From: a virus
Length of the DNA: 64,000 bases
Virus record (IMG/VR): IMGVR_UViG_3300026488_000018
Span: 1 to 64,000 of that record
Reading direction: 5' to 3' (one strand)
The number at the start of each line of letters is the position of its first letter. The stretch's first letter is position 1. Below the pieces are notes generated by a model. It was not told the DNA's origin. It did no database searches and saw only the letters and a list, made by a program, of their open reading frames with translations. Below are positions 6,108 to 63,345 of this stretch, piece after piece. The position numbers and the translations under genes are program-made.

Positions 6108-6125
6108 GTTTTTGGAGGTGGTATT

Positions 6126-29647: not shown

Positions 29648-29964
29648 TTTTTAAACTTTTCTTTGCAATTTTTTATGGAGGTGTTTCTGTGGAATATTAC
29701 GAGAATGAAATAATAGTTGGCTATTTTAACGTCGGCAAACCACTGATAATCACCCGAGTATTGAATACAGACGGTGAAGTTATAGACGGTTTTTTTAGGT
29801 TTTATTTAGATGGAGACGTTATTTTTGAGATGGATGTTGGCGATGTGGTTTTGATGAGTGATATTTTGAGGGATAACGCAAAAGACTTGTACACAGAGAT
29901 GATTAACGGTGCGGTGTCTCTTTCACAGGATAACGGTTTGAAGGATGATAATATGTATAGGTGA
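29644..29964 (+). CDS. Hypothetical protein (likely GTG ~29689)
   Basis: SD GGAGGTG after TATA at 29648. Confidence 0.55.
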   Translation: MIFKLFFAIFYGGVSVEYYENEIIVGYFNVGKPLIITRVLNTDGEVIDGFFRFYLDGDVIFEMDVGDVVLMSDILRDNAKDLYTEMINGAVSLSQDNGLKDDNMYR

Positions 29965-32150
29965 TAGTGATGAGCCGAAATAAAGAAAGTGCTAGCGCCG
30001 CTGATGCGAATGCAATTTTGGCGAAATATAAAATATCTGTTACCGAGTGTGATGATGTCCCCGCCGAAGAGAGGGTTTATTTAAGTGCTGTTGATTTGGA
30101 GAGATGGGTTAGAAGATATGGCGCAACCGGGTTATGCAGGGGTCCAAGAGGCGGTATTTTTGTTAGGCTTAGTGATTATAAAAAATTGGGTGGGGCGTTA
30201 CAATCTAGTGGGGAAATCGATGAAGATGTTGCACTGAAGAGGTTAGAGAAGAAAAAAGTTAAAGTGGAATTTATCGAAAGTGGTAAATATGATGCAGAAG
30301 TTTATGATATTTTGGGTCAGAATTATATTGTAGCAAAGAATTTTGACATATTTAGTAATGTAATGCAGAAGAAATATTCTGGAAATGGGAAGGAAATAGC
30401 TGCAGCAATGCTGAGAGATATGATTAATAGGTTGTACGGAATGTCTGAAGGCGATATGTTTTTAAGTCAGGATTACAGTAACGTTGATATTAGAAATATA
30501 CACCTGATTGAGAATGGAGTAAAGAGTTTTTACGGGCTGATGATTTTGTCGATGCCGGACGAACTGTTTAATATAATGTGTAAATATGCAAAGACATTAA
30601 AAGATAATGGCAGTGTATCTGCTTCAGTCTTTACTAGAGATGAACAAGAGTATTTGTACAGCATATTTAATGTGAAAAATTGGCAACTAATAGATTTTTC
30701 ATTGAAGAAGTTTTTGTTTACAGGTTATAGTGCGTTTAGTAGATGTGATGATGTGAGTAATATTAGGAGTAATTTGGGTGATGATGTCTGGGATGTTTTG
30801 AGTGGATTGAAAAGTGTTATGGATATAATAAAGGATGATTCCTTTAGTTTGTACAATTTTGGGTTTTTCTTATCGAAGTTTGTAATGGTTAGAAAAAGTA
30901 AAGGGAAAACAACAACAATTTTGAAGACTGATAACATAGGGAATGTTTGGGAAGATTTTTTCAAGTTTAAAAAGAAAGGATTTCTATTGGTTCGTGTTGG
31001 AGATGATTTGAAGAATGCTGTTGATGGTGATAAAACGTTTGTAGAGACTATAGTTAAACCAAGTTTTGTGATATACGGAATTTTGAGAGGCGCAGGCGTT
31101 AGTAGTAAATCAGCATGGGCAGTTTCGAAAGGCGTTAGTGTTATGGCACAGCGAACATACGGCAATTTTAACGGGATTGCACCATATTTGGATTGGTATT
31201 TGCAGAAGTTTGTGACAGGGAACGGACGACCAGTGAGAGTTCCAAATAAGTTTTCTCCAGGGATTGGGAAACTTATAAAGGCGTTGGATAATTTTGTAAC
31301 CCCGATGGATTTGGGTATTTATTTGAACTTTGTGAGAAATTATGTAAAAGAGAGGCACGGTGAACAGGTTGAAGTATATAGGAATTTAAATTTGTTTGAG
31401 GGAAGTATATTTTTAGCAAACAATATCGCCAAAGTAGCCGACAGAGTATTGTTTAAGGATGAAAAGAGAGGGGAGAAGTATTTGAATGCATTGATGAAAG
31501 ACGGTAATGTTATCAAAGGTTATACGTTGTCGACGAGTGTTAATAGAAATGATGTTGAAAAGTTTTTGCAGAGGGGATGGACGAGCGGCGTGTTGGCGAA
31601 GGCAACTATAAAGAGTGACAGCGTTGTTGGCGGGTATTTTGTTGCGGGTGGAGGTTATGTGGATGATTCAGAATTGACAGTTGAAGTTTCACATGATGGA
31701 ATTAAGTTTGAGACAGTTACGATTATACCAAAGAGACCATTGGAAAGGGGCGTATTAAGTCTGGCAGGAAAGGCGGAGAAACCTGAATTGGGCGATTATG
31801 TTAGAGATTTTATGAACTCACTAATATTAGGGATATCACAGGTATCATATGGAAATGCAGATTATGATGAGTATATTGACGCTATATTAGGGGGACTATA
31901 TGTTTATCATAAGGTGGGTGAAAAGCTGTATGGGAATGAATTTATTGAGAAAATAAAGAATGAACATCTGTGGAATAGGGTATTTGAGGCAACTATTATC
32001 GGGATTGGTGGTAACAGAACGATAATTCCAAGCGGGAGCAAAGGTAAATACAGACCATTAAGTGTTTTAAAGTGGAAAGATAAGTTGGTGAGATTTTATA
32101 AGGATATAGGTTTGAACGATGTCGCAGATATAATAGAGAAGGTGGTCTGA
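29961..32150 (+). CDS. GPxGG-tagged large protein with ADP-ribosyltransferase-like domain
   Basis: VPAEERVY...CRGPRGGIFV; R-S-E type motifs VYRNL, TLSTSVN, DDSELTV. Confidence 0.6.
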   Translation: MIVMSRNKESASAADANAILAKYKISVTECDDVPAEERVYLSAVDLERWVRRYGATGLCRGPRGGIFVRLSDYKKLGGALQSSGEIDEDVALKRLEKKKVKVEFIESGKYDAEVYDILGQNYIVAKNFDIFSNVMQKKYSGNGKEIAAAMLRDMINRLYGMSEGDMFLSQDYSNVDIRNIHLIENGVKSFYGLMILSMPDELFNIMCKYAKTLKDNGSVSASVFTRDEQEYLYSIFNVKNWQLIDFSLKKFLFTGYSAFSRCDDVSNIRSNLGDDVWDVLSGLKSVMDIIKDDSFSLYNFGFFLSKFVMVRKSKGKTTTILKTDNIGNVWEDFFKFKKKGFLLVRVGDDLKNAVDGDKTFVETIVKPSFVIYGILRGAGVSSKSAWAVSKGVSVMAQRTYGNFNGIAPYLDWYLQKFVTGNGRPVRVPNKFSPGIGKLIKALDNFVTPMDLGIYLNFVRNYVKERHGEQVEVYRNLNLFEGSIFLANNIAKVADRVLFKDEKRGEKYLNALMKDGNVIKGYTLSTSVNRNDVEKFLQRGWTSGVLAKATIKSDSVVGGYFVAGGGYVDDSELTVEVSHDGIKFETVTIIPKRPLERGVLSLAGKAEKPELGDYVRDFMNSLILGISQVSYGNADYDEYIDAILGGLYVYHKVGEKLYGNEFIEKIKNEHLWNRVFEATIIGIGGNRTIIPSGSKGKYRPLSVLKWKDKLVRFYKDIGLNDVADIIEKVV

Positions 32151-32151
32151 A

Positions 32152-32409
32152 ATGTATAGCGACACGTATTTATACCCAATAGGTGATGATGATTGGGTTT
32201 TTAGTAAAATTACGAACGCGTTGGATATTAGTATTGTTGATAGAGAGGAGTTTAGAGTGTTTGAAGTTGATGAGTTAATTTTAACGGAGTTGATATATTT
32301 GAATCCGTTAATACCAGTGTTTACAGATGGGCGCGGGTATTATGTCGTTGCTAAAAAGGGCAGTGAAGAAGAAAAAATGTTGGAGGTGTTGATTAATGGG
32401 GTTGTTTGA
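32152..32409 (+). CDS. Small hypothetical protein
   Basis: Between the ART-like gene and portal. Confidence 0.6.
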   Translation: MYSDTYLYPIGDDDWVFSKITNALDISIVDREEFRVFEVDELILTELIYLNPLIPVFTDGRGYYVVAKKGSEEEKMLEVLINGVV

Positions 32410-34471
32410 TTTCTTTTTGAATAGGCGTGAGATTAAGAAAAACGGTGATGAACCGGAGGTGGAAATAGAATTTGCGAAGGATGGAACATTTAATGCATTA
32501 ATGTATGCAGGAACAGATAATTTGTTTGATATAAAGGGTCCACTCGATTTTAGGGGGATAAATAAGAGTGCTGTTCAGGCGGGCGTAAGCGGGTTAGCGT
32601 TAGTCCCAATTTTACCGTTTAGTTACGAGTATGTAGAAAGCCTTTATTACAATAGCGATATACTGAGAACGGTTATAACGGTATTGTTGAATGAGACGTT
32701 CGGGAATGGGTTGAGTGTTAAACCGAAGTTTACGAAGAAGTGTTTGGTATGCGGTGCAACGTATGATGAGGATGTCGATGTGTGTGAGGCTTGTGGGTCA
32801 CATAGATTGGTGGGCCCCAATGAGAATGAACGGAAAATTTTAGAGAAGTTCATAGAAAAGGCGAATATTAATAATCAACCCTTGATTGATGTGCTGAGGG
32901 ATTTAGACCACAATTTGAATGTATTTGATAACGCGTATTTGATTGTTAGAAAGAAATACGAGTATAATGACAATGGTGATTTGATAGCAGAAAAACCACT
33001 TGAGATATACAGCGGTGACCCGAAGCGTATTTATTTGGTTATGAGTAGTGATGGTCGTCCGGGTCTTACGCGCGATGGTAAGAATATGGTTTTTGTCTGT
33101 CCTGAGCACAGAGATGAGCCAGTATTGGTTCCAGTAGAGAAGTTATTGGAAGACCCTGATTATATTCCAAGGTGTCCGAAGTGCGGGCGGAAGATGCATA
33201 AGGCTGTAGCAGTTTATGATGTAGGAGGAAGCAAGTATTTTTTTATTGATGGTGAAATTCTTCATTTGAAGAAGTTTACGCCCGGTATTGGATACGGGTA
33301 CCCGCCGATAATTACACTGTTGAAGAAATTGCTTATATTGATTAAGCAGGATTCGTTTATTTTAATGGCTTATCATATGCAGAGACCGCCGCGCGGGCTC
33401 CTTGTGTTGAGAGCAGATAGGAATGCTGTTGCTAAGGCATTTATGACTGCGCGCAGTGAGGCTTATAAGAACCCATGGAATATTGTGCCGTTGGTTATTT
33501 CAGGCCCGGAGAAGGTTGTTGGGAAACGTGTAGTTGAGTGGCTTGATTTGAGTTATAAACCAGATGAAGTGACATTTACCGCGTATCGCAATGAGGTAAG
33601 ACGCGTTGTTGCAAGTATGTGGCAAATTAGCCCAATTTTCCAGGGTGAGGTTAATACTGGTATTTCTAATGAGGGGTTACAAGTTACGATAACAAATAGA
33701 GCGATTATGCGTGAACAGGCTTTGATAAATAATGTGTTGAAGTGGCTGGTTAAGCAGTTGAAGGTTAATGATTGGGTTATAGAGTTAAATCCCAATGAGC
33801 CAATGGATATTTCACGCAAGCTCGACAGAATACGCCGCCGTATTGATATAGTAAAGGAGCTGGAAGAGCTCGGGTATGAAGTTGAGTTAATCCCAACGGG
33901 TGTTGACGGTATTGACTTTAAGTTCGATGGGAAGATTGAACCAAGTAAGAGGTTGAAGAGAGCGATTGAATTGTATGCAAAGAGGAAGGGGTATAGGATT
34001 AATGTTGATGATTTTATTGAAGTAATTGATGTTCTGCCGAAGGTAGGTTTAACGTTTGAGTCGTTTAAGAGGTTAATGTTGCTTGCTGAGTTGGTTGGCG
34101 GGGTTGAGAACATTATTAGAAATGTTGAGCAGGTGTTGAATATTCCACCGCTTGAGCAGATTTTGTATAGGATAAAGTATCCAGACGCTGCGAGTAATTA
34201 CGAGCAGGGTGGTGTACAGATGCTGCAAGATAACCAACAAGAAGTATTATCCCAGGAGCAGGGTATTGAAGAGAACAATGAAGGGGGTTCGTTAACGTTT
34301 GAGGATTGGCTAAATGAATTATTAAATGAAAGTGACGAAGTAGAAGGACAGCCAGCAGAGAGCGGTGTTAAAATGTTTAATTCAGAGGAGGGTGAGAAGT
34401 TTGAGGGGCAACCTGAGATGAATAGAAAGGAGATGCCCGGTATGGAGCATCTATACGAGAGAAGAGAGTGA
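32396..34471 (+). CDS. Portal protein with Zn-ribbon insertions
   Basis: LNVFDNAYL, EILH, GYGYPPI, PPRGLL motifs; CLVC..CEAC and CPEH..CPKC inserts; upstream of protease. Confidence 0.85.
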   Translation: MGLFDFFLNRREIKKNGDEPEVEIEFAKDGTFNALMYAGTDNLFDIKGPLDFRGINKSAVQAGVSGLALVPILPFSYEYVESLYYNSDILRTVITVLLNETFGNGLSVKPKFTKKCLVCGATYDEDVDVCEACGSHRLVGPNENERKILEKFIEKANINNQPLIDVLRDLDHNLNVFDNAYLIVRKKYEYNDNGDLIAEKPLEIYSGDPKRIYLVMSSDGRPGLTRDGKNMVFVCPEHRDEPVLVPVEKLLEDPDYIPRCPKCGRKMHKAVAVYDVGGSKYFFIDGEILHLKKFTPGIGYGYPPIITLLKKLLILIKQDSFILMAYHMQRPPRGLLVLRADRNAVAKAFMTARSEAYKNPWNIVPLVISGPEKVVGKRVVEWLDLSYKPDEVTFTAYRNEVRRVVASMWQISPIFQGEVNTGISNEGLQVTITNRAIMREQALINNVLKWLVKQLKVNDWVIELNPNEPMDISRKLDRIRRRIDIVKELEELGYEVELIPTGVDGIDFKFDGKIEPSKRLKRAIELYAKRKGYRINVDDFIEVIDVLPKVGLTFESFKRLMLLAELVGGVENIIRNVEQVLNIPPLEQILYRIKYPDAASNYEQGGVQMLQDNQQEVLSQEQGIEENNEGGSLTFEDWLNELLNESDEVEGQPAESGVKMFNSEEGEKFEGQPEMNRKEMPGMEHLYERRE

Positions 34472-34514: not shown

Positions 34515-37151
34515 ATGGAAGAACTGAAAAAAATTGATATTCTGGGGAGTAGTAACGATAGATTGATTGCGGGTTGGGCGAGCGTTGAGGTTGTAGATAG
34601 GCAGGGACAGATTGTTCCAATTGATGAACTAAATAAGGCGCTTTTGAGGTATAGTATTAGAGGCGCACCGCTTAATTATGGGCATAAAAACCACCAGGTT
34701 GGGCGTGTTATTAATTGGTATATAATGAAACACCCGAAGACGGGTAAGTGGGGTGTTTACATTATAGGCTACATATTTAGCGGTGAGAAGATATATGATG
34801 TTGTTTGGGAGGCGATTAAAGACGGAACTCTAACAGGTTTCAGCATTGCCGGTATTGCAAATAGGAAGGAGTATGATATTGTTGATGGGAGGAGTGTTGA
34901 GGTGTTGAGAGATATCACAATTACAGAGATAAGTGTGGTTGAGAAGCCAGCGAACCCCGAAGCTCTTATTGAGGAGATTAATAAGTTTGCTAAGAGCGGA
35001 GATGATTCGGTTATCCGTATAATGGGTGCAAGTTTTACTAAGGGTATTATTGATGATGCGGTTAATGTTGCCAAGGAGAACGGTGTTAACGAAGAAATTG
35101 TCGCTGATATAGTCGAAGAGGCACTGAGAAAGTTCATCTGCGGTATTGCCAAGCAGTATGACAGCAAGGTGATGGCAGTATTTGATAATGAGAAGGATGC
35201 GTTTGCGTATGCCATTGAGAAGGGAGGATTTGTGATTCCGAGTTATGATGGAAAGTTTTTAGTTGTAAGAGATAAAGCACATTTTGATGTTAAGGAAGAC
35301 GAGAAGATGTATATAGAAGAGTTGGATATGGGCGTAGAGAAGGTTAAAGTTGATGTTGATATGAAAGATGAAGAATTTGAGAAGAGTGAGGGCCCGGTTA
35401 CAGTTAGTTCAGAGGGAATGATGAACCCTACTTATGGAAGCAAGTGGTTAAAGAATAAGGACGAGAAGTCGAATGTGATAGGCGAAGTGATTATGAATCT
35501 TATCAGGATTAAGAAAGAGTTTAAGGATAATGAGTCGGTGTATTATTTGATTGATGATATGATTTTTAAGCTGCACGATTTGGTTGGTGGTGATGAGATG
35601 GTTAAAAGTATTGAAAGTGATGATGATTTGAGGAGAATTTTGGTAGGTCTCCTCGATGAGGCTAAAAAATTGAGGGGATTTGTGTATAAACATACAGAAA
35701 GTCTGGCATATAAAGGTATGGCTGATGATATTGTTAAGACGTTTGAACATCTGATTGAGGAACTTGATAGCGGGCAGATTGAGGTTGCTAAGGGTGAACT
35801 TACAAAGGATGAACTGTTGAGAATATTAAGAGGAATTCTTGATGAAGCAAAGAAGATTGCTGGTTTTATTAGAGACCACACTGAGAGCGGGGCATACAGG
35901 GGAATGGCTGAAGACGTTGTAAATGGTTTAAGGGCGCTCATTGGCGACGTTGAACGCAGTATTATTCAGGTTAGGAAGGATAGTGGTGTAGCTGATGATG
36001 ATATGAAGATTAAGGAAGAAGCAGAGAAGCTTAAGACAAAAATCGAGGAGATAAACGAGGTGTTTAGTAAGCAGGATGAGGGCAGGAATAGGATGATGAT
36101 GATGTACGGAAGTATTATGCAGAGCATTGTCGATGAATTGGAAGCTATAATCTTTTATGCTGACGTCGCGGCAATGTTTGATATGTTTGGGTATGACGAA
36201 ATTGCGGCGAATGTGAGGAGTGTTATTAGTGAGGAGCTAGAGCATGTTAGGGAGTTTACGGCGATGCTCGAGAAACTTGCTATTGGCGATAAACCAATTA
36301 AGGAAATTGAAACAAATGAGGAAGTTGCAGTTCCCACCCCCGACCAGGGTATTGTTGAAGTGAGCAAGAAGGAAAGAGGTGAGCACAAGAAGTGTATGGA
36401 GCGGTATTATAATTTTGAAGAAGGCCATTTCAAGGGTAGAGAGGGAACGGGTGAAAGGTTCGATAATTGTGTAAAAGCCCAGATGCATTGTAATGGGAAG
36501 AGTAGAGAAGAGGCTGAAAAGATATGTGGTATGATTGCTCGCAGGAAAGGTTATGCTGGCGGAAAGAAGGTTAAGAAGGGTAAGATTGATGAAATAAAAG
36601 CGAGACTTGAAGAAGTTAGAAAGGCGGCGAAGAAGAACTGTCGGAAGCGGTATTATGATGAAGATAGAGGACATTTCCGCGAGATGACTTGTCCAGATGA
36701 CCCAAATGAGAAAAGTAGGTTCTGTGGTTGTGTCAGGTATCAGATGAACTGCAATGGTAAGTCTTTGGAGGAAGCTAAGGAGATATGCGGATATATAAGG
36801 TTCCATGTTAAGAAGAGTGTTGAAACTGAACTTAATATGCTTCTTGTGAAGCTGAGGGTTGCAAAGGCAAGGAAGACTGGGCACCGTAAGGGTAAGACTG
36901 AAGCACAGCGTCGAAGGGAGAGAAAACAGCAAGGTCCTGGTCGTCCTAAAGACCCTTGTCGACAGCGTTTTGTTGATAAGAATGGTTTTTACAGAAAGAT
37001 GACTGACCCAAAGAACCCAAGTAAACCCGCGAGCGAGTTTTGGGGGTGTGTGAGATATGCAATGGAATGCAAGAAAATGTCATACGAAGAAGCGAAGAGT
37101 TGGTGTGGTAAGGCGAAGTACGATGCTGTTGAGGGCGGCGGTGAGGCGTGA
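34515..37151 (+). CDS. HK97-type prohead protease with long multi-domain C-terminal extension
   Basis: IAGWASVEVVDRQG, YGH, GFSIAG, EISVVEKPANPEA; followed by helical repeats, ferritin-like domain and Cys repeats. Confidence 0.88.
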   Translation: MEELKKIDILGSSNDRLIAGWASVEVVDRQGQIVPIDELNKALLRYSIRGAPLNYGHKNHQVGRVINWYIMKHPKTGKWGVYIIGYIFSGEKIYDVVWEAIKDGTLTGFSIAGIANRKEYDIVDGRSVEVLRDITITEISVVEKPANPEALIEEINKFAKSGDDSVIRIMGASFTKGIIDDAVNVAKENGVNEEIVADIVEEALRKFICGIAKQYDSKVMAVFDNEKDAFAYAIEKGGFVIPSYDGKFLVVRDKAHFDVKEDEKMYIEELDMGVEKVKVDVDMKDEEFEKSEGPVTVSSEGMMNPTYGSKWLKNKDEKSNVIGEVIMNLIRIKKEFKDNESVYYLIDDMIFKLHDLVGGDEMVKSIESDDDLRRILVGLLDEAKKLRGFVYKHTESLAYKGMADDIVKTFEHLIEELDSGQIEVAKGELTKDELLRILRGILDEAKKIAGFIRDHTESGAYRGMAEDVVNGLRALIGDVERSIIQVRKDSGVADDDMKIKEEAEKLKTKIEEINEVFSKQDEGRNRMMMMYGSIMQSIVDELEAIIFYADVAAMFDMFGYDEIAANVRSVISEELEHVREFTAMLEKLAIGDKPIKEIETNEEVAVPTPDQGIVEVSKKERGEHKKCMERYYNFEEGHFKGREGTGERFDNCVKAQMHCNGKSREEAEKICGMIARRKGYAGGKKVKKGKIDEIKARLEEVRKAAKKNCRKRYYDEDRGHFREMTCPDDPNEKSRFCGCVRYQMNCNGKSLEEAKEICGYIRFHVKKSVETELNMLLVKLRVAKARKTGHRKGKTEAQRRRERKQQGPGRPKDPCRQRFVDKNGFYRKMTDPKNPSKPASEFWGCVRYAMECKKMSYEEAKSWCGKAKYDAVEGGGEA
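35612..35980 (+). repeat. Two tandem ~60-aa helical repeats in the protease extension
   Basis: DDLRRILVGLLDEAKKLRGFVYKHTESLAYKGMADD vs DELLRILRGILDEAKKIAGFIRDHTESGAYRGMAED. Confidence 0.85.
36387..37125 (+). repeat. Three Cys-rich ~55-aa repeats in the protease extension
   Basis: C..R(Y/F)...G.(F/Y)...F..CV...M.C...S.EEA...CG repeated three times. Confidence 0.85.
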
Positions 37152-37189: not shown

Positions 37190-37480
37190 ATGAATGAAGG
37201 TATTAAGTCACTGGAAAAACGAGGTGCTAAGAGGTTTGTATTGTGGTTGGTATATTTGATTTTCGCCTTTATGTGGAATGTAAATAACGTTGATAATTTC
37301 TATAGCGGTGCGGGGTTGAGTTTGATTGCATTATCAGTGTTTACTGTAATCGATGAGAAAATAAAAGAGGGATATTTCTTTGACCCGAAGGATTTGAAGG
37401 GTAAAGGGTGGACACACGAGAAACTGGTATTCTGGTCCGCAGTTTTCGGCGCGGTATTGCTTATGATTGGTGGGGTGTGA
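37190..37480 (+). CDS. Membrane protein
   Basis: Three hydrophobic segments. Confidence 0.65.
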   Translation: MNEGIKSLEKRGAKRFVLWLVYLIFAFMWNVNNVDNFYSGAGLSLIALSVFTVIDEKIKEGYFFDPKDLKGKGWTHEKLVFWSAVFGAVLLMIGGV

Positions 37481-38006
37481 TGTTATGGGGATTGGAAATC
37501 CTACTCTTCGTGAATATTTGAGTGTATTGGAGCGGTATGGGAGTTATATGGGCAGAAAAATTGATGAGGGTAAGTTGTTTAAAGTGTATAGACGTGTGCA
37601 AGTTAATCCAAACGGAAGTTATAATCTTTACATCGATAATTCGACAAGCGATAGCGATGTTATAATTTCAATTCTTATTATTGAGGCTGATGGTAAAGCA
37701 AGTATAAACGTGTATAAGGACGTTAATATTAATAGTTATGGAAGCGAGGTTACACCGGAACCATTTGTTATAGGAGATGAATTGACGATTGCGACGAAGT
37801 TCTATGAAAATGTGGATTATAGTGGTGGGGTTCTTATTGATGGTGGACAGATTCAGTCTACACGGGGCAGACGCGGTATTGGCGGAGACCAGGAGTTTAA
37901 TGTGTTTTTTAAGATAAGAGCCGGGAAGTCTTTATTGATTGAAGTTGAGAATTTGGATTCTGTTAGTATTAGAGTTGATGTTAAATTAATTGCTCATGAG
38001 GGGTGA
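37467..38006 (+). CDS. Hypothetical beta-rich (likely structural) protein
   Basis: Context and composition. Confidence 0.6.
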   Translation: MVGCDVMGIGNPTLREYLSVLERYGSYMGRKIDEGKLFKVYRRVQVNPNGSYNLYIDNSTSDSDVIISILIIEADGKASINVYKDVNINSYGSEVTPEPFVIGDELTIATKFYENVDYSGGVLIDGGQIQSTRGRRGIGGDQEFNVFFKIRAGKSLLIEVENLDSVSIRVDVKLIAHEG

Positions 38007-38206
38007 TGGTATTGAACGTTAAAGAGATTGCTGAGCTGGTGGCTCTGGTCAGTGACGATATAGCGGCGCTGGTATTAATAATCGTTGGTTCGTATATTGC
38101 TATTAAGATGGATTATGATAACGGCAGCGCGTTGATTAGTTTGGGTGTTGCGTATTTGTTTGGTAGCCACGTTCCTAAAAAGCCTAAGTCCCGGGGTGAG
38201 AATTAA
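38003..38206 (+). CDS. Small two-TM membrane protein (holin-like architecture)
   Basis: Two hydrophobic helices, YLFG then a basic tail. Confidence 0.55.
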   Translation: MMVLNVKEIAELVALVSDDIAALVLIIVGSYIAIKMDYDNGSALISLGVAYLFGSHVPKKPKSRGEN

Positions 38207-39738
38207 TGGTTGGCAAGTTGAGATTGTATAATGATAATAGGACGAAACTACGCGAACTGTATTATGATGATACTAAAGGTATTGGAATGAGGGATGAGGT
38301 CGGTAATGAGTATGACATTGTTAGGGGGGCTTATGATTACATTATTTATGGCGAAGACATTGATGGCGATGGTATAGTAGATGTTGTCTATGCGAAGAAT
38401 GGACGCACGGGGAAGATTGAATTTGAGGGTGAAACAATATCGTATATATTAGATAAAATTTTCAATGTTAGTGAAAAGATAAACATATTATTGAGAGATG
38501 GCGTTTATGTAGCGGATAGCACTATTAATATATCGAATAAGAATACTGTGCATATTGAGGGTGTAGGTGATGTGAGAATTGAGTGGCGCGGGAGTATGGA
38601 TGATTTAAAGATTGTGAGGGTTGAAGATGTAGATAAATTTATTATTAGAAATATAGTGTTTGCAAATGTTCCACAATGGGGAGTATCGATTGGTCCGGCT
38701 TCAACGAGTAAGGGTAAGTATGCTATAGTTGATGGTGTTAGAGTGTATGGTTCTGGATACTATACATTGGGGACGGCATTGTCAATTTGGAATTATGAGA
38801 ATATTATAGTAAATAATTGTTATGTGTATGGAATGGATGATGTTATACAAATAAAGTCAACATCAAGAAAAATCAGTAATGTTTATATCATTGATAATGT
38901 TTTTGTTGATGGACGAGTAGAAGTTGGATTATCTGAAATTGATATTGATAATGTTTTTGTTGCAAATAATGTATTTGTTTCGGATAGTGAACCAACATAT
39001 TTACGTTTAGAACCGAAGTTAGGGAATGTTGTTGTCAGTTCGAATATATTTGTTGCCGTCAATGAAACACATTCATATGCTGTTAGGGTTGAACGTAACG
39101 GTGTTAATGGAGAAATTTCGAATATTAATATTAGTGGGAATGTAATTGATACATATTATTTGCCAGCGCTGTATATCAATGTTGAAGATGGGATGAGCGT
39201 TGGGACGGTTAAATTTTCTGATAATATTATTAGTGGAGTTGTTGAAACAGGTATGATACATGTAGAGAATTATGGTACGTTTGATACATTAGAAATTGTT
39301 AATAACATTTTTAATTATAGTGATAGTATTTACAACCCAAGTGTAAAGATTTATGGTGATAACCCCATAAGGTTTGTAAAAATTTGTGATAATAAATTCA
39401 AATGCACATCATCATATGTGAATATTTTTGATAGAATAATTAATATACCAGAATTTTTGTTTTTGTGTAGGAATATCGTTGAATCATTTGATGGTGAAAT
39501 ATTTAGGACTGAAAACAGTGGTACTACAACTTTCTCTGGTGATGGTACTACTACTCAGTTTGTAATAGCACATGGTTTAGTCTCGATGCCAAGTAAAGTT
39601 CAAGTCACTCCAATGAGCGCCGATGCGGTAGGTCCGTTTTATGTTACCGCAGATGAAACTAACATTTATGTGAACTATACTACTGCCCCACCAAGCGGAA
39701 CAAACAATATTAAACTAAGCTGGTACGCAGAGGTGTGA
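38206..39738 (+). CDS. Beta-helix spike/adhesin 3
   Basis: DIDGDG + [12 protein letters not shown] module, beta-helix core, C-terminal domain shared with 8252 (...WYAEV). Confidence 0.8.
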   Translation: MVGKLRLYNDNRTKLRELYYDDTKGIGMRDEVGNEYDIVRGAYDYIIYGEDIDGDGIVDVVYAKNGRTGKIEFEGETISYILDKIFNVSEKINILLRDGVYVADSTINISNKNTVHIEGVGDVRIEWRGSMDDLKIVRVEDVDKFIIRNIVFANVPQWGVSIGPASTSKGKYAIVDGVRVYGSGYYTLGTALSIWNYENIIVNNCYVYGMDDVIQIKSTSRKISNVYIIDNVFVDGRVEVGLSEIDIDNVFVANNVFVSDSEPTYLRLEPKLGNVVVSSNIFVAVNETHSYAVRVERNGVNGEISNINISGNVIDTYYLPALYINVEDGMSVGTVKFSDNIISGVVETGMIHVENYGTFDTLEIVNNIFNYSDSIYNPSVKIYGDNPIRFVKICDNKFKCTSSYVNIFDRIINIPEFLFLCRNIVESFDGEIFRTENSGTTTFSGDGTTTQFVIAHGLVSMPSKVQVTPMSADAVGPFYVTADETNIYVNYTTAPPSGTNNIKLSWYAEV

Positions 39739-39905
39739 ATAAGTGGCTATCTATACTAAATTGCGTATTACTTATGATGAGTTGAAGGTTGTATAATTTA
39801 ATTTGAAGTAATGCGGGTGGGTAGTAAAGTTAACCGGGGATGATGATTTTATTGAGGGTGCGTTTTTAACTCTTTTTTATGTATTTTTATCAGGGGTGAT
39901 AGTAA

Positions 39906-40190
39906 ATGAGTTATATTCCATTGAAGAGGGTTTTGGATGTTCTTAATTTGTTTAAGTTTGATAAGGAGAGTTATGTAAAAACAAGCGTTAGGCCGAAATT
40001 GGAGGTTCATGATGAGGAAATTGCAAGTGATGAGGTTTTGGCTGTTGCAAGCGGAGACGAGGTGGCGTTTAATAATTTGAAGGTTGATGGACGCATGATT
40101 GTAAAAGGCGCAGTGGATGTTGTCGGTGACATAGAGATAACCGGAACACTGGACATAATCGACGACGGTATTGTTAATGTCGGTTTGTGA
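39906..40190 (+). CDS. Small beta-solenoid (bactofilin-like) protein, paralogue of 2591
   Basis: LKVDGRMIVKGAVDVVGDIEITGTL repeats; promoter consensus 39863-39885. Confidence 0.55.
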   Translation: MSYIPLKRVLDVLNLFKFDKESYVKTSVRPKLEVHDEEIASDEVLAVASGDEVAFNNLKVDGRMIVKGAVDVVGDIEITGTLDIIDDGIVNVGL

Positions 40191-41616
40191 GGTGATTGCT
40201 GTGAGTGAGTTGAGATTTATCGGCGAAAGTGGAACGATTCAGAAAAAGTTTGTGCTAGATGAGGTTAACAATCAGCTTAAGATGGTTGATATCCCGAGCG
40301 GAAAGGAGGTTTATTTGAACCAACCAGTGAATGTGTATGATTACATAATTTTTGGCGAGGATACAAACGGCGATGGCATCGTGGATATTATCTATGCTAA
40401 GAATGGCAAAACAGGAGAGATTGAATTCGAGAGTGGTAACGCGAGAGAAGTTGTGCAGTATGCGTTGGATAATGGGAGAAATGTGTATGTTGCTAATGGA
40501 AAATATTATATTGATTCAACAATAAAGATGTTATCTGATAGAGTTTTAGTGTTCGAGAGTAGAGATGCAAAATTTTATACGGATAGTGCAATTACTATGG
40601 TTGAAATAAGTAGTGTTGGGTATGACCCAGATATTGGCATATATTCAACAAAGGGTATTTTTGGTGGAACTCTAGATGGTGGAGGAGTTGCAAATCTTGT
40701 AAAGATTGTTGACGTAGAGGAGGCGATAATAAGAGGAACCGCAATGATTAATTTTGTTGATGGTATTGAAATAACAGCTCAAGATTATTGGAGTGAATGG
40801 ACAAAGATAGAGGATGTGATATTTAGGAACTATTCTGGTTGGGCAATAAAATATACGCCTACGTCAGGGAGTGGAACAGACAGTAGGGGTGATTCATATC
40901 TAGCAAGAATTAGAGCAGACCCTCTGGGAGGTGGAGGAGGGTTAATAAAGGTGGAGACAGGTGTAAACGCAGGAAGCATGGTGGCAGTAGATTTGGTCTT
41001 TTTTAATAGAGGACAGTATATGATATATAGCGATGGGAGATTAGATGAAAGTGTTTTTATAAAAGTGCGGATGGAAGACCATTCTCCTAGCGGTAAAGAG
41101 TTGCTGTATTTTGATAATAATCATATTGGATATGTGGAAATGATTTCAGTTGGTATTGGTCCGATGTTGCTTGGTAATTTTACTGATTATTTTGTATGTA
41201 ACCAAGGTGGTGTTGAGATAATTAATAGAGATACTCAATATATCATTGGCGTTGGTAGATACAAATATATTGTAGGAGCACAAGGAGATACGAGAATAAC
41301 ATTTGCTGGAAATGCTAACATGACCTCAGGTAACTGGGTGTTTGATGTTAGGGATGATATAGTGAGTAATAAGTCGTTATTCCACATTACTCACGGCGGA
41401 GCTGTATATCTTGGTGCACAAGATTATTCAGATACAGTAGTAATGAATAGGTTGAGGTTTGCGAGCACAACACGACCACATTTTAATATCGTAGCAAGAA
41501 ATACTCCCCCGAGTAATCCCGCGGTTGGAGATATATACTTAGATGATGGAACAAATACAGCAGATGGTAAGCCTCATTTTAGGTATTGGGATGGAACACA
41601 ATGGGTGGACTTGTGA
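40171..41616 (+). CDS. Beta-helix spike/adhesin 4 (likely GTG start 40201)
   Basis: DTNGDG + YAKNGKTGEIEF module; C-terminal PSNPAVGDIYLD...YWDGTQW fibre motif. Confidence 0.8.
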   Translation: MLMSVCEVIAVSELRFIGESGTIQKKFVLDEVNNQLKMVDIPSGKEVYLNQPVNVYDYIIFGEDTNGDGIVDIIYAKNGKTGEIEFESGNAREVVQYALDNGRNVYVANGKYYIDSTIKMLSDRVLVFESRDAKFYTDSAITMVEISSVGYDPDIGIYSTKGIFGGTLDGGGVANLVKIVDVEEAIIRGTAMINFVDGIEITAQDYWSEWTKIEDVIFRNYSGWAIKYTPTSGSGTDSRGDSYLARIRADPLGGGGGLIKVETGVNAGSMVAVDLVFFNRGQYMIYSDGRLDESVFIKVRMEDHSPSGKELLYFDNNHIGYVEMISVGIGPMLLGNFTDYFVCNQGGVEIINRDTQYIIGVGRYKYIVGAQGDTRITFAGNANMTSGNWVFDVRDDIVSNKSLFHITHGGAVYLGAQDYSDTVVMNRLRFASTTRPHFNIVARNTPPSNPAVGDIYLDDGTNTADGKPHFRYWDGTQWVDL

Positions 41617-41771
41617 GGTAATGGTATATGGTATTGGGTTGGATGAAGAGTACTAATGATGACAATCTAATCTTTCCTATTTATATTGGTTTTACAGTCT
41701 AGGCTATTTTTTCTTCATATTTAAATGAATGTGGTGAAATTTAAATGGTAGGTTTCACGGGGTGATTGTAT

Positions 41772-42305
41772 ATGCCTGAGGAAGAGAAGGTTGAGGTTAT
41801 GCCCACCGAGGAGGAGCAGACTCTGCCTGTTGAGGATAATAAGGTTGAAACTAAGACTGATAATGAGATTGAGGAGATTCTTGAGAAGATTCAGGATATA
41901 GTTGCTGAGCTTGCTGACCTTGTTGCACAGGCAACTCAGCTTCAGGCCAGTGATGTTAACATTAGCGAGGAAATCGAGGAGAGCCTGAAGGGTATTGTCA
42001 GAGCGGAGCTTAATGCGTTTAAGGATGAGATTGTTAAGGCTGTTAAGGAAGAGCTCATTTCGCTCGGTATTCCTGAGAGTTATAGTGAGCTTAAGAGGAA
42101 GGATGAGGAGAAGGCTCCGGAGGGAACTGATAAGGTCGAGGTTAGTGAGAAGGAGCTTGGTAAGCTTGAGCCGGAAGTTCTTAAGGCTGCGCCGAAGAAT
42201 GTTACCGGCGGGGAGGATGAGCTTTCTGTTAGAATGATGATTGTTGAGAAGATTATGAAGGGTGAGATTAAGAACCCGTTTGAGGCTTACAAGTATATAA
42301 GGTGA
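41772..42305 (+). CDS. Capsid scaffold protein
   Basis: Acidic coiled-coil immediately upstream of MCP; codon bias like MCP. Confidence 0.7.
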   Translation: MPEEEKVEVMPTEEEQTLPVEDNKVETKTDNEIEEILEKIQDIVAELADLVAQATQLQASDVNISEEIEESLKGIVRAELNAFKDEIVKAVKEELISLGIPESYSELKRKDEEKAPEGTDKVEVSEKELGKLEPEVLKAAPKNVTGGEDELSVRMMIVEKIMKGEIKNPFEAYKYIR

Positions 42306-42310
42306 TTTAA

Positions 42311-43486
42311 ATGGTGTGGAGTGTTATTTCTGAAAAGGAGATAGCTGCGTTTTATGCTGGTGGAGATAGTATATTTAACGGGGCGTTCGATATTGCTAAA
42401 GCCGATGGTACCGTTAATTCTGAGCTTATTCCTAATTATCGTAACATAGTTTATGGTCCGCGCATTTGGAGAGCTCTTAACGTTGAGAGTAATGCGTTTG
42501 GTATTCTTCCTAAGACGACTTGGCCGAGCTCTGGTTGGCGTGTGAAGACTGATTTTGCTTACCAGAGCAGTGAGATTGCTATTGGTGAGACTGACAGCTT
42601 TGGTACTCCGAAGTATCCGCCGATACAGGTTGTTAGGGCGCAGCCAAAGATAGCGCTTGTTACGTTCGAGATTAGCGATGTCATGGAGGCGCTTGCTGAG
42701 GTTTCGCAGGATGACGTTGTTGGTACCGCGGAGCAGCTTCGTGTCGATATGGGTACTGAGTTTGTTAAGATGGTTAATAGGGAGCTTCTTAGGAAGGTTA
42801 TTGGTAGCGCCACTGATGGAAGTGATTCTGAGGGTTCTGAGCCTGCAACGAGGTTTACTTCGCTTGATAGGGCTGTCGCGAGCCATGCGGAGGCACAGGC
42901 TTTTGGTTCCCCGGAGAGTGCGACTGTTTACGGTATTGACAGAGCGAGCGCTCCTTGGATGGATTCAGTTGTTAAGTTCGACACGAATGGTCTCGAACTT
43001 ACGGATGAGCTGATAAGGCAGACTCTCGCTGAGGTTAAGAAGAATGGTGCTAACACTAATGTTATACTCACCGGTTACGATACTTATGCGAAGCTCCTCG
43101 GTATTTACATGAACTTTGTTAGGTATCTACCGGCTATGACTGAGACGCAGGTTCAGTTCGGTGTTAACGGTATTCAGACTGCGAAGGGTATTGACGCGGG
43201 TGTGAAAGTTGCTGCCCTTTATGGAATTCCAGTGATACAGTCTGTTGATGTTCCAAGTGATGGTAACGGTTATCTGCAGAGGATGTATATGCTTGACCTT
43301 ACTGACCCCGAGGGATATGGAATACCGCGCGGAAGTTTCTCAATACTTAGGCCGCCGAGCTATCTTGAGAGCAACAACTTCGTCCTGATGCAGAAGGTTG
43401 TAAGGCGTGGAGCGTACTATATGGCGGGTGAGCTGACTATAAGGCTGCCGCGCATGAACGCGAAGATAAGGTCAATCCTCGAGTGA
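42311..43486 (+). CDS. Major capsid protein (HK97 fold)
   Basis: YG..W..LN.E.NAFGILPK..W..SGWRV N-terminal motif, TSLDR, ILTGYDT, LYGIPVI; strong codon bias. Confidence 0.85.
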   Translation: MVWSVISEKEIAAFYAGGDSIFNGAFDIAKADGTVNSELIPNYRNIVYGPRIWRALNVESNAFGILPKTTWPSSGWRVKTDFAYQSSEIAIGETDSFGTPKYPPIQVVRAQPKIALVTFEISDVMEALAEVSQDDVVGTAEQLRVDMGTEFVKMVNRELLRKVIGSATDGSDSEGSEPATRFTSLDRAVASHAEAQAFGSPESATVYGIDRASAPWMDSVVKFDTNGLELTDELIRQTLAEVKKNGANTNVILTGYDTYAKLLGIYMNFVRYLPAMTETQVQFGVNGIQTAKGIDAGVKVAALYGIPVIQSVDVPSDGNGYLQRMYMLDLTDPEGYGIPRGSFSILRPPSYLESNNFVLMQKVVRRGAYYMAGELTIRLPRMNAKIRSILE

Positions 43487-60831: not shown

Positions 60832-61000
60832 GGTTGTACGTATTATCGGTGATAAAGTTATTCCTCTTTTTACTGTTGATGGTGATGAGTTTAGTAATAT
60901 AGAGCTTGCGCGCGAGTATGGGTTTGACGGCATGGATGAAGAGAAAATCAAGAAGCTTCTCTGGGATAATCCATATCTTAATTATAGGGAGGTGGAGTGA
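60818..61000 (+). CDS. Small protein, paralogue of 60634
   Basis: Same pattern; SD GGGTGGGTG. Confidence 0.6.
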   Translation: MRVIEVVRIIGDKVIPLFTVDGDEFSNIELAREYGFDGMDEEKIKKLLWDNPYLNYREVE

Positions 61001-63345
61001 TGCAGGGTGCAGAAAAATTCCAAGGGAAGTCTTATTCAGAAGTTCCACCCGAGTATAGGTATTATGTTGATGAAGAAGAGGAGAGTAAATTTAGGGCAAT
61101 GGGTGTTCCTATATATGAGGGTCCACATGGTGGGAAGTTTATAGATAGACGCGATTTGATTAGACACGGTGAGAGAAATCCAATTGAAGTGTCAAGTACG
61201 AATATTATTAAGTTGAAACAGTATTACGACGCTTTATTGGAACGAGGCAGTATTGATTCGGATGAGATGAAGAATGTGATAGCGGCGTTGAATTGGGTAA
61301 GATTTAAGGGAATGGCCCGCAAGGTGGGTGATTTGAGTGTTATTGATGATAAAATTGCTAAGGTCGAGAAATTAGATATAAATTCGTTAAATAGGGATAT
61401 TTTGTTTAAAGTTCAGTTTAAGGACGGAACATACGCGTATATGAAGAAGCTTTTTCCTGATGAAATGATAGAGGTTAGGGTTGCCGGTATTACAGGACAT
61501 ATTGTTAGTAATATGTTGGAGAAGATTGTTGAAAGTGATGTTTTGAAGAAGCTATTACCGAAAGGGCGTTTGGTTAATTACAACGGCGATTGGTATTTTA
61601 TGACAGATGAAGTGTATGGTGTTTTGGGTGTTAACGCGAGGGATAAGCTGAAGGATATTGATTTCAATAGTGACGACATGATAGATTTGATGGCGGGTTT
61701 GATTGTAATTGGGTTAGGTGATTTACATTTTGCTAATGTATTCTATGAGCCAAACGCAAAGATAATAATTCCATTTGATTTTGATTTCGCAGGAAGTAAC
61801 ATTAAAATTACAAATTTTGGACCACTTGATTTTATTGCGAGGGTTGATAAGGATAAGTTTAAGGATTTGGATTTCAGGAAACTTGCCGATAAAGTTGTTG
61901 AAAAATTTGAAAAATATAACGGTGAACTACGTCAGTATTTGTCAGATGAAGAAGATGTATTGAAGACGTATATTAATGCAGATGAGCGGGACGTTGATTT
62001 TGCGATTGAGAGTTTTTATGAGTGGTTTAATAGACTTGGAAAAATTGTTCAGATGTATAAGGATGGAATGATAAATGGTTTTGGGATGTTAGTTAATGTT
62101 GGTTCGGCGAGACCAAAAGTTAATATTAGGGCGTTTATCGGCGATGATTTATTTAATGAGTTGATAAATGATTTTTCGAAAGCCGCAAAGGTACCGGCTG
62201 AGTATAGGTTGTATATTAATAACTGGCAGGCCCAACGATTTAGGCGCAAGGGTATTAAAGTTTACAGAGGCCCGCGTGGTGGGCTGTATGTTGATATCAG
62301 AGAGTTAAAGAATAGAGGTGTTAATACAGACGAAGTTAAGGTGGTTGAGGAGTTTAAACCGGAGTTACTGGAGGATTCTAAGAATTTGAATGCTATTATT
62401 GCCAGGGTTGCAGAAGAACCAAAATTACGTGTGGCCGTTGTTAACGAATTGAGGAAGGGTATTGATTACATGATAGAGAAACTTATTGATTACAAGTTAG
62501 GGCAGAATAGGGAGGAGTATTTGTTACATTATCGCAGAGCAGTGAATGCAGCATTTGTGCTAAATGCGTTGAATGGGAAAGCAATGGCGAATGATATGAA
62601 CAACGATAATTACAAGGTGGTATCGTTTAGTGATGTTGGTGCGCAACCGGGTGTTATAAATGTGACATCGATGTTTATAGGAGAATTTCTGGATGGGTCA
62701 CATATTTTTGCAAAGGAGTTGACGGATGATGCCGAGTGGGTTGTAAATAATTATGTTGCCCCAGCGTTGATTAAGGTATTGGTTGGTCGCGAGTATTCGG
62801 ACTTTATTCCAACACCGCGTATTATAGTGAAGGATGGTAGAGTGTTTGTTGGGACGAGTGAGGTGTATGGAGTTACTGGCATGGATTTAATGGGTATTCA
62901 AGATATTGAGTTAAAGAACGTGGATAGGTTCATGGATTTTCTCGCCGCTCACTATGTTGTTGGTTTGGATGATAGCCACGAGTCAAATTACTTCATAGAT
63001 CCAGAGAACGGAGTATTTGTACAGTTTGATGTTGATTATGCGTTTATGAGGGGTGGAACGGAGCTTCATATAGGTACTATGGTGGAAAAATTAGCAGAGT
63101 GGTACGGTTTTGATGCAACGGAGGTAAAGAGAAGAGGGATAGAGAAGTTGTTACAAAAAGAAAAGGAGATAATGTTCACTATAAGAGCGTTACGCGCGTC
63201 GTTAGATGTTTATGATATGCCCGAGGATAAGAAGGAGATAATGAAGAAGGGTATTGATAGAGCAGGCGCGTTTATGTTTGAACTTATCAGGAAAGCAAAG
63301 AAAGACCCAGACGAAGCTATACGGTATTTGGACAGCAAAATTTGA
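60997..63345 (+). CDS. Tandem GPxGG-tag + HipA/PI3K-like kinase protein (two modules)
   Basis: Module 1: AYMKK, GDLHFANV, PFDFDFA; module 2: IFAKE, DDSHESNY, QFDVDYA; each preceded by VP.EYR.Y...GP.GG. Confidence 0.8.
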   Translation: MMQGAEKFQGKSYSEVPPEYRYYVDEEEESKFRAMGVPIYEGPHGGKFIDRRDLIRHGERNPIEVSSTNIIKLKQYYDALLERGSIDSDEMKNVIAALNWVRFKGMARKVGDLSVIDDKIAKVEKLDINSLNRDILFKVQFKDGTYAYMKKLFPDEMIEVRVAGITGHIVSNMLEKIVESDVLKKLLPKGRLVNYNGDWYFMTDEVYGVLGVNARDKLKDIDFNSDDMIDLMAGLIVIGLGDLHFANVFYEPNAKIIIPFDFDFAGSNIKITNFGPLDFIARVDKDKFKDLDFRKLADKVVEKFEKYNGELRQYLSDEEDVLKTYINADERDVDFAIESFYEWFNRLGKIVQMYKDGMINGFGMLVNVGSARPKVNIRAFIGDDLFNELINDFSKAAKVPAEYRLYINNWQAQRFRRKGIKVYRGPRGGLYVDIRELKNRGVNTDEVKVVEEFKPELLEDSKNLNAIIARVAEEPKLRVAVVNELRKGIDYMIEKLIDYKLGQNREEYLLHYRRAVNAAFVLNALNGKAMANDMNNDNYKVVSFSDVGAQPGVINVTSMFIGEFLDGSHIFAKELTDDAEWVVNNYVAPALIKVLVGREYSDFIPTPRIIVKDGRVFVGTSEVYGVTGMDLMGIQDIELKNVDRFMDFLAAHYVVGLDDSHESNYFIDPENGVFVQFDVDYAFMRGGTELHIGTMVEKLAEWYGFDATEVKRRGIEKLLQKEKEIMFTIRALRASLDVYDMPEDKKEIMKKGIDRAGAFMFELIRKAKKDPDEAIRYLDSKI

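Follow-up and report, generated by a model that had tools for sequence, protein, structure and literature searches.

A candidate lysine-directed maturation motif in the head proteins of a virus with an HK97-type protease and a modular extension

The head-gene locus and the protease domain

We analysed the prohead protease of the virus record IMGVR_UViG_3300026488_000018 in IMG/VR, an 878-amino-acid (aa) protein in which the catalytic domain is followed by a C-terminal extension of about 720 aa. The DNA examined, hereafter the window, was a 64-kb stretch (positions 1-64000) out of the 89,720-bp record. Tetrapeptides of the form Phi-x-Lys-small, where Phi is a hydrophobic residue, recur in this extension and in the other head proteins of the window, and they are probably sites at which the protease cuts after Lys. 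The genes and sites on which the argument turns, including the major capsid protein (MCP) gene, were as follows (AF2, AlphaFold2 model; pLDDT, predicted local distance difference test).

34515..37151, + strand: prohead protease with modular C-terminal extension, 878 aa, directly after the portal gene
34515..34994, + strand: protease domain, residues 1-160, S78/XkdF type with assemblin fold, from family matches, hhalign and Foldseek
34986..34997, + strand: F158-A-K160/S161, candidate release (self-cleavage) site at the domain end, from conservation
32396..34471, + strand: portal protein, 691 aa (phrog_18178, E 8e-39); FAKD26 and INKS55 precede its conserved core
41766..42305, + strand: probable scaffolding protein, 179 aa, from position and size, directly upstream of the MCP gene
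42311..43486, + strand: MCP (SU10_MCP/HK97 fold), 391 aa (phrog_24667, E 1.9e-27; AF2 pLDDT 88.9)
42392..42403, + strand: I28-A-K30/A31, candidate MCP maturation site with a 30-aa propeptide, from an aligned Lys and a flexible segment

The head module of the window thus shows the order portal, protease, MCP, and this order was kept in all 21 related loci in which a portal was found (of 45). The open reading frame (ORF) at the scaffold position had no family match in Pfam and PHROG searches.

Residues 1-160 are an HK97-type capsid maturation protease with catalytic His57 and Ser110. The domain matched PF14550 at 25.3 bits, above the cut-off of 24, and phrog_9427 at E 7e-18; it scored 20.9 bits with PF04586, just under the cut-off of 21, and 26.1 bits with TIGR01543, far below the cut-off of 59. 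A HMMER search with the protease returned 1705 relatives at E <= 0.001, and the best 150 of these (151 with the window protein) all carried the protease domain, with extensions of 184-1324 aa. PF04586 was matched at E <= 0.001 by 77 of 79 homologues. When a 79-homologue profile was compared with HK97 gp4 by hhalign (probability 95.6%, E 1.1e-8), YGH57K was paired with FNHK and GFS110IAG with GMSVGF, placing the catalytic His and Ser at the HK97 gp4 positions, which we take to be His65 and Ser114. Eleven columns were invariant in the 79-sequence alignment (R16, D28, H57, W98, S110, E138, S140, P145, N147, A159 and K160). The AF2 model of the domain had a pLDDT of 96-98, and Foldseek matched it to the human cytomegalovirus (HCMV) protease 2wpo (E 2.9e-3, probability 1.00), as expected of an assemblin fold, and to T4 gp21 5jbl (TMt 0.59, root-mean-square deviation 3.2). 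PF25720 (Herpes_ORF28) also matched the domain in 21 of the 79 homologues. Only two close homologues (801 and 864 aa) were found in a set of 5.8 billion proteins, and both carried the same modules in changed number and order. The XkdF-like ORF12 of psiM2, named 'structural protein' in a record that lists no N-terminus for it, had a sequence without the PAN...AK motif described below.

Occurrence, enrichment and conservation of the motif

The original prediction, made from the letters of the window, had listed 13 tetrapeptides in the protease (FAKS158, FTKG174, IAKQ211, IEKG234, FEKS288, MVKS362, VAKG424, VRKD486, FSKQ517, VKKG686, VRKA701, VKKS765 and VAKA782) together with sites in the MCP, portal, scaffold and a 782-aa protein, and every one of them was present. 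Two further fits were found in the protease, LNKA39, within the protease domain, and LTKD429. The MCP carries IAKA28, and the scaffold carries IVKA89, VLKA138 and IMKG163, in addition to the two portal copies given above.

The window protease held 15 copies of [FILVM]xK[SAGQD] versus 7.4 in residue shuffles (P 0.008) and 11 of [FILVM]xK[SAG] versus 5.2 (P 0.011), with P values that are optimistic because the motif was chosen after reading that protein. Comparing head with non-head proteins for the [SAG] form, as the original prediction had proposed, gave 19 versus 9.6 in the four head proteins of the window (1.98x, P 0.001) and 58 versus 64.7 in the other 84 ORFs (0.90x), as it had anticipated. 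The head proteins minus the protease held 8 versus 4.4 (P 0.076), the scaffold alone 3 versus 1.2 expected, and three proteins tagged with a GPxGG module 14 versus 10.1 (P 0.135).

The excess was replicated in three sets of sequences outside the definition of the motif. The first consisted of 137 homologue extensions (44,229 aa), 14 of the 151 proteins having been dropped (P0001-P0003, nine without the PAN...[AS]K anchor, and the rest with an extension under 60 aa). [FILVM]xK[SAG] occurred 424 times versus 214.5 in this set (1.98x), with a z of 14.7 that is overstated since homologues were treated as independent, which leaves the ratios and controls unaffected. Replacing K by R gave 0.97 and by E 0.98, and shifting the hydrophobic or the small residue by one position gave 0.91-1.10. 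The reversed pattern [SAG]Kx[FILVM] stood at 1.43x, which we attribute to its overlap with the same sites, Ala being favoured at -1 and Leu at +2. The second set was made up of IMG/VR loci found with the protease profile, only 28 of 80 having an anchor-bearing protease ORF. Protease extensions held 92 copies versus 58.9 (1.56x), protease domains 37 versus 23.3, the ORF just upstream 19 versus 30.4, and 236 other ORFs from the same loci 138 versus 142.2 (0.97x). The third set was composed of metagenome loci found via the capsid protein, with a protease in 45 of 80 and identical proteins counted once. Here the extensions reached 142 versus 60.6 (2.34x) and the scaffolds, taken as the ORFs between protease and MCP, 100 versus 44.0 (2.27x), with MCPs at 1.58x, portals at 1.69x and 805 other neighbouring ORFs at 653 versus 631.1 (1.03x); the R, E and shifted controls for extensions and scaffolds were 0.75-1.07. 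The motif excess is thus genuine, and it is confined to Lys and to head proteins; the worry that it equals the background given Lys richness, which the original prediction had named as its own refutation, is answered by the 1.98x found out of sample with R and E controls near 1. Moreover, 63 extensions of HK97-type proteases from IMG/VR held 278 copies versus 110.9 (2.51x; R 1.05, E 0.67, shifted 1.07), and because the same excess appears there, the Lys code would seem to belong to the S78 family at large and not to this virus in particular.

At the end of the protease domain, the [AS]-K that follows the 'PAN' motif, in the pattern N-x-Phi-A-K-[S/G/A], was located in 142 of the 151 homologues. 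Position -1 was Ala in 141 of these sites, position -2 was L, F, I, V, Y or M in 139, and position +1 was Ser in 58, Gly in 57 and Ala in 9. Across 79 aligned sequences A159 and K160 were as invariant as the catalytic His57 and Ser110. Sequence similarity among the homologues ended right after this A-K, and AF2 confidence fell there from 87 to 42, residues 161-175 having a pLDDT <50.

The MCP family comprised 87 proteins including the window's own, and the N-terminal count used 82 of 84, two being dropped as their N-terminus was missing. The column of K30 was Lys in 80 of the 82, with a hydrophobic -2 in 79 and a freely variable -1; the +1 residue was A in 41, T in 14, S in 7, G in 6, D in 7 and E in 7. 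The segment ahead of this column had a median length of 35 aa, and residues 25-40 were the only stretch of the window MCP with pLDDT <50 in the AF2 model. Scaffold tails were similar. Of 54 distinct C-terminal tails of the protein encoded directly before the MCP in related loci, 45 carried the motif (11.3 expected), its Lys being 12-30 residues from the C-terminal end in 40 of the 54; IMK165/G of the window scaffold lies 14 aa from the C-terminus. The tail helix had the consensus 'Phi-Phi-K-[GAS]-Phi-L-x-G-K' (loci L083-L162, scaffold or protease-scaffold fusion), and this conserved element may bind the MCP and carry a site for maturation cutting. For the portal, 116 of 120 homologues were used and 4 dropped, and the motif was present in 77 of the 116 N-terminal regions versus 18.5 expected, mostly as Phi-x-K-[AGS]-Y/F-T-E. 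This homologue site has no clear match to either FAKD26 or INKS55 of the window.

Taken over 422 motif copies, the site profile showed I>V>T>F>L at P3, S>M>P>A at P1', Leu enriched 2.8x at P2', and acidic residues at P4/P5.

The modular extension, cleavage after lysine and the alternatives

The window extension is composed of the features below, besides a linker at 161-175, a hairpin at 317-357 and a helix at 494-519.

35031..35267, + strand: helical hairpin 173-212 and small 35-aa alpha/beta module 219-251, containing FTKG174, IAKQ211 and IEKG234
35274..35468, + strand: long acidic, disordered, low-confidence linker, residues 254-318, containing FEKS288
35613..35984, + strand: tandem pair of a 62-aa helical module, 367-428 and 430-490, in the arrangement MVKS / module / VAKG / module / VRKD
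36075..36290, + strand: two-helix ferritin-like half-domain, residues 521-592, preceded by FSKQ517, with weak sub-threshold matches
36363..37127, + strand: three Cys-rich repeats, 617-680, 700-764 and 806-871, with VKKG686, VRKA701, VKKS765 and VAKA782 between or within them
62173..62184, + strand (outside the extension): F393-S-K-A of the 782-aa protein encoded at 60997-63345, 3 residues before its second GPxGG module

The small alpha/beta module occurred 9 times in 7 proteins, and K290 of FEKS288 was invariant across the three close homologues. Eight full copies of the 62-aa helical module were found in 7 proteins, with Phi-x-K-[SAGDE] before 7 of the 8 and after 6. The commonest module was the Cys-rich 'F..CV..M...G...E.A...CG.I', with 156 copies in 98 of the 151 homologues; the Cys-rich repeats had no Pfam or NCBIfam match, and an Atlas search with Cys module 1 returned unnamed small viral proteins only, with scores <0.9. 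Extensions across the family were assembled from few recurrent unnamed modules, 53 homologues having a 'QKPFAGY..F..C' start and 16 having 'PPK.WWDRC', and one protease homologue contained an intein. Pfam and NCBIfam searches found no enzyme domain besides the protease in the window protein. Its homologue P0131 (980 aa) has a SAM-lyase domain (E 1.5e-10, 41.6 bits against a Pfam cut-off of 28) and a DRAT-like region (E 1.4e-5, 24.9 bits, just under the cut-off of 25), and P0148 has a DRAT-like region at 23.3 bits against the same cut-off of 25.

The ferritin-like half-domain was found in 4 of the 151 proteases. In the window protein it matched Pfam Ferritin/Rubrerythrin at E 1e-3, below the cut-off, and the best NCBIfam matches of residues 533-591 were two encapsulin cargo families, EncB_fam (NF058679; E 1.3e-4, 21.9 bits against a cut-off of 90) and TIGR04535 (E 7e-4, 19.6 bits against 125), both scores falling outside family membership. 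It matched bacterioferritin weakly (E 0.04), and a whole-protein sequence search of the PDB returned only bacterioferritin (E 0.38). The AF2 model has helices at 525-557 and 561-589. An uncultured-phage protein, listed in BFVD as 'Ferritin/DPS protein domain containing protein', aligned along the whole model. The metal ligands of half-ferritins are E...Y plus E-x-x-H, and the candidate metal-binding residues E541, Y548, E574 and H577 were kept in all three close homologues.

A module of about 35 aa, '...VY[IV]K.P..AP.G.K...GP.GG.YY', heads the window proteins encoded at 6702-7751, 29961-32150 and 60997-63345, appearing twice in the last. It was also seen in P0074, P0094, P0131, P0151 and P0148, in some inside the protease extension, and in P0131 it lies ahead of the SAM-lyase domain and the DRAT-like region. 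This distribution suggests a role of the module in targeting to the head or in the head interior. The 729-aa tagged protein was considered as a relative of the ADP-ribosyltransferase-like P0131 and P0148, and the idea was dropped when BLASTP gave nothing significant (best E 0.13-0.22).

The closest known system is HK97 gp4/gp5 (S78; PF04586; TIGR01543), which shares the homologous catalytic domain, the head-module context and a cut of the form Phi-x-K/S. According to PMC10275583, HK97 gp5 is cut between K103 and S104, in 'a rather unstructured part', much as the window MCP carries its candidate site in a flexible segment. The HK97 record reads T-F-N-K/S-L at this bond, in agreement with the family profile of Ser at P1' and Leu at P2'. 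The removed delta domain (103 aa) holds four motifs (IQKA7, LTKS50, LIKS85 and FNKS101), and the remaining 282 aa hold one. The sequence of HK97 gp4 itself reads ...PANEQAGIAAMK/S right after its last strand, plus LTKS180. The two systems differ in that HK97 gp4 is a 225-aa protein with a short tail, whereas the window protein has 878 aa and at least 8 extra modules; in HK97 gp4 and more distant S78 proteases the Lys lies three residues earlier, the invariant Lys of the window being 3 further from the PAN motif; and the HK97 scaffold is fused to the MCP as the delta domain, whereas the window has an MCP propeptide of about 30 aa and a separate scaffold gene. Phage phi12 (PMC8569155) has its capsid protein cut after R128 and Ccm after K87, two sites which its authors describe as sharing little beyond a basic P1. 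The available texts on SU10 (PMC9509320) and HFTV1 (PMC12494034) hold no cleavage data.

The herpesvirus assemblin precursors (herpes simplex virus UL26 and HCMV UL80) have the same fold and likewise join an N-terminal protease to a scaffold-like C-terminal region in one chain. Their layout is protease, release site (R-site), scaffold, and maturation site (M-site) near the scaffold C-terminus, and their cleavage consensus is (V/L/I)-x-A/S. Candidate sites are conserved in the window family at the corresponding places, the protease-domain end and the vicinity of the scaffold C-terminus, and a hydrophobic P3 and Ser at P1' are common to both. The differences are that P1 is Ala there and Lys here, that many more internal sites are seen here, that the M-site-like motif here is on a separate scaffold protein, and that the third residue of the herpesvirus Ser-His-His triad (PMC4498786) differs here. 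T4-type prohead proteases cut at an L/I-x-E motif. T4 gp21, phiKZ gp175 and SPN3US gp245 (PMC10052503, PMC7411985) resemble the case proposed here: a single head protease trims many head proteins, among them the scaffold, the MCP, the portal and the internal and ejected proteins, and recognises a short, degenerate motif whose P3 is hydrophobic or small. P1 is cut at E120/S121 (PMC9024508), and Alt is an example of a cargo enzyme that is both trimmed and packaged (Iyer 2017, PMC5512222). These T4-type proteases differ in having Glu and not Lys at P1, in belonging to another MEROPS family and in lacking fusion to long cargo chains. Polyvalent proteins, as described in PMC5512222, are late proteins of many swappable modules, probably packaged in the head and in some cases bearing an assemblin-like peptidase. 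That peptidase is described there as always C-terminal, in contrast to its N-terminal place (1-160) in the window protein, which also falls outside the definition by two or more effector/enzyme domains that P0131 partly fits. Encapsulin cargo (EncFtn/EncB) and the window protein have in common a half-ferritin of two helices that goes with an HK97-fold shell; the window domain, however, is fused to a protease and not to a targeting peptide or shell.

We consider it fairly likely that the HK97-type protease with its modular extension cuts head proteins after Lys at Phi(P3)-x-Lys(P1)/small(P1'), a reading favoured because the homologous HK97 enzyme cuts at the same tetrapeptide form. The claim of the original prediction that Phi-x-K-small is a head-protease cleavage motif common to protease, scaffold, MCP and portal thus gains support at the sequence level from the HK97 site form, from conservation and from an approximately 2-fold enrichment in three sets. 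We infer scissility, the order of cuts and the fate of the fragments as follows. As the procapsid assembles, the extension would probably bring the enzyme inside, acting in part as scaffold and in part as internal protein. There the enzyme would most likely cut at hydrophobic(P3)-x-Lys(P1)/small(P1') sites, where P4/P5 are often acidic and P2' is often hydrophobic. A cut at F-A-K160/S would free the catalytic domain from the extension, as the counterpart of the herpesvirus release site, and thirteen further cuts in the extension would leave pieces of about 5 to 170 residues. The 30-residue propeptide of the MCP would be stripped at I-A-K30/A, the scaffold would be cut, once at 14 residues from its C-terminus as the counterpart of the herpesvirus maturation site, and the N-terminus of the portal might be cut as well.

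Several observations weigh against cutting at these sites, besides the overstated z-scores. The case for it in this lineage is statistical throughout; the mature part of the MCP family was not depleted of the motif (74 vs 73.5); the scaffold-tail motif tolerated K->R/Q in some relatives; and site lysines in the window extension were not better conserved than others (invariant in 4/14 versus 26/84 across the three close homologues). Serine proteases usually do not cut before Pro, and Pro was enriched 1.54x at P1' after Phi-x-K, mostly in a 'Phi-Q-K-P-F-A-G-Y' module of 53 homologues; with this P1' Pro, a fraction of the motif copies may stay uncut and have a docking or structural function. That the motif as a whole is unscissile, serving as a docking or structural element through beta-strand pairing or the domain-end fold, appears improbable to us. 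A conserved i and i+2 around a variable middle would also suit a beta-strand, K160 closes the ordered part of the protease domain, and both the Phi-x-K-Pro variant and the conserved 'Phi-Phi-K-G-Phi-L-x-G-K' context of the scaffold tail, with its occasional K->R/Q, fit such an element. However, the homologous HK97 enzyme has its mapped cut at the same tetrapeptide; an excess seen with K but not with R is more readily explained by a specificity pocket than by packing; the MCP copy falls where the chain is disordered; and copies that are scattered and poorly conserved, in linkers that evolve fast, typify cleavage sites and not structural motifs. That the excess simply reflects composition or coiled-coil periodicity, picked up in helical proteins rich in Lys by a post hoc choice of motif, is hardly credible. 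The motif was indeed defined on the window protein, Lys makes up 10.9% of the mostly helical extension, and hydrophobic residues at both -2 and +2 give an i/i+4 spacing. The enrichment nevertheless replicates outside the motif definition, in sequences that give only 0.67-1.10 with the R, E and register-shifted controls, and neither the 805 neighbouring ORFs nor the other 84 ORFs of the window share it. Cutting by a host protease or another viral enzyme has a precedent in the host proteases that join the maturation of S. aureus phage 80alpha (PMC8569155), and we hold it to be very improbable here, as the motif is invariant at the end of the protease's own domain, co-occurs with the protease family in three data sets and agrees with the specificity of the homologous HK97 enzyme.

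A separate question is what cutting after Lys would achieve. One answer is that the extension is a cargo loader, from which the ferritin-like and Cys-rich metal-binding modules (in relatives the SAM-lyase and ADP-ribosyltransferase-like ones) are cut free by the Lys code, with GPxGG enzymes, including the tandem kinase-like 782-aa protein, trimmed alike; we regard this as rather doubtful. The original prediction had placed the sites often at domain boundaries, where they would release intact cargo, and this part of it did not hold up. Site lysines lay in low-confidence AF2 segments in 5/14 cases, or 7/14 and 8/14 with a tolerance of 1 and 2 residues, and their association with linkers, compared with all 84 extension Lys, was non-significant (hypergeometric P 0.41, 0.15 and 0.12). 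There was likewise no excess of sites at the edges of Cys-rich modules (starts 26 vs 19.7; ends 21 vs 23.7), the number of sites per Lys being 0.060 in module cores versus 0.084 outside; these results also count against the cleavage reading. The largest site-free block, 169 aa spanning the ferritin-like domain and Cys module 1, matched the random expectation of 167, and it therefore gives no evidence for protected cargo. The pattern fits a chopped and cleared scaffold at least as well as exact cargo release. The other answer is that the sites are cut yet the extension is a disposable scaffold or targeting arm whose peptides leave the capsid, like those of the HK97 delta domain and the T4 core, with no functional cargo, an account that disputes the cargo and not the cleavage code and that we hold as a tentative possibility, somewhat on the unlikely side. 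The median predicted fragment of a homologue extension is 50 aa long; sites also lie inside confident or helical parts (K236, K703 and K767) without preference for boundaries; 19 of 45 related loci, and also the locus L003 described below, lack a separate scaffold gene and have the MCP directly after a long protease ORF, whose extension thus occupies the place of the scaffold; and the removed domain of HK97 is dense in motifs. Against a purely disposable arm stand the four metal-ligand candidates kept in all three close homologues, the SAM-lyase and DRAT-like regions of P0131 and P0148, which are enzymes and not scaffold, and the separate scaffold gene that the window already has.

The tandem kinase-like protein had been read in the original prediction as split by a cut exactly between its two modules. 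FSKA393 does precede the second 'VPAEYRLYI...GPRGG' module by 3 residues, and in protease homologues four of five internal GPxGG modules were preceded by VEKA, VEKG, VYKA or IMKA, the fifth by LKKY. These residues could equally be read as the first residues of the module itself. The 782-aa protein, taken whole, showed no enrichment of the motif. Neither the 782-aa protein nor a 349-aa protein nor the tag region matched any Pfam family at E <= 0.01, hence no kinase family either.

Protease-scaffold fusions, cutting after Lys by HK97 and the trimming of many head proteins by one protease are already established. The Phi-x-K/small consensus with an invariant domain-end copy seems new, as our searches met reports of individual sites and no paper stating it, and it may have been published before. 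How large the extension of this archaeal virus is and what it contains, and the N-terminal position of the peptidase in comparison with polyvalent proteins, seem new too. Our literature search found no paper joining prohead protease with encapsulin or ferritin-like terms and no description of a protease-ferritin fusion, and the words protease and ferritin were absent from the main text of a 2026 preprint on Thermococcales viruses (PMC12934983). Should the Lys code be correct, sequence alone would suffice to read where mature head proteins begin and end, and this in a large group of tailed viruses, archaeal and bacterial and for the most part uncultured, to which the 1705 protease relatives belong. 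For the window it predicts an MCP starting at Ala31, a protease domain ending at Lys160 and a scaffold that loses its 14 C-terminal residues, and it points to counterparts of the release and maturation sites between herpesvirus and prokaryotic-virus proteases. The extension frames the further question of whether, in some viruses, a protease loads enzymes or a ferritin-like module into the capsid. Were that so, capsid loading in the tailed viruses of hyperthermophilic archaea would resemble that of encapsulins, and there would be a living link from viral head maturation to encapsulin cargo loading.

Neighbouring genes and related loci

Six ORFs lie between the protease and scaffold genes of the window (37190-41616; 96, 179, 67, 510, 94 and 481 aa), unlike related loci, in which none or one is found there. 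Pfam gave nothing convincing for the six. The 510- and 481-aa proteins share the N-terminal stretch YDYII(Y/F)GED.(D/N)GDGIVD..YAKNG.TG.IEFE and look like paralogous fibre or beta-helix proteins. The portal protein has zinc-ribbon-like Cys pairs, with weak PF18912/PF13240 matches at residues 112-135 and a second CPxH...CPKCG pair near residues 240-265, and owing to such pairs JGI names some portal homologues 'RNA polymerase subunit RPC12/RpoP'.

Scans of IMG/VR with a single protease or MCP sequence returned no relatives, whereas the protease profile scan did find loci. The sole IMG/VR locus with an MCP related to that of the window (local jackhmmer, E 1.9e-188) was L003 (IMGVR_UViG_3300032053_005200, 4433-6987). 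Its 460-aa protease ORF overlaps the MCP start and there is no separate scaffold gene; its MCP reads ISK|V at the position of IAK|A in the window.

The source names of MCP homologues, 'Desulfurococcaceae archaeon' and 'Thermoplasmata archaeon', suggest an archaeal host for this hot-vent virus. All long ORFs of the window are carried on the + strand, and the GC skew, (G-C)/(G+C), was 0.31-0.51 in each 2-kb bin of positions 1-64000. This strand asymmetry is extreme, being unusually strong even among viruses coded on one strand.

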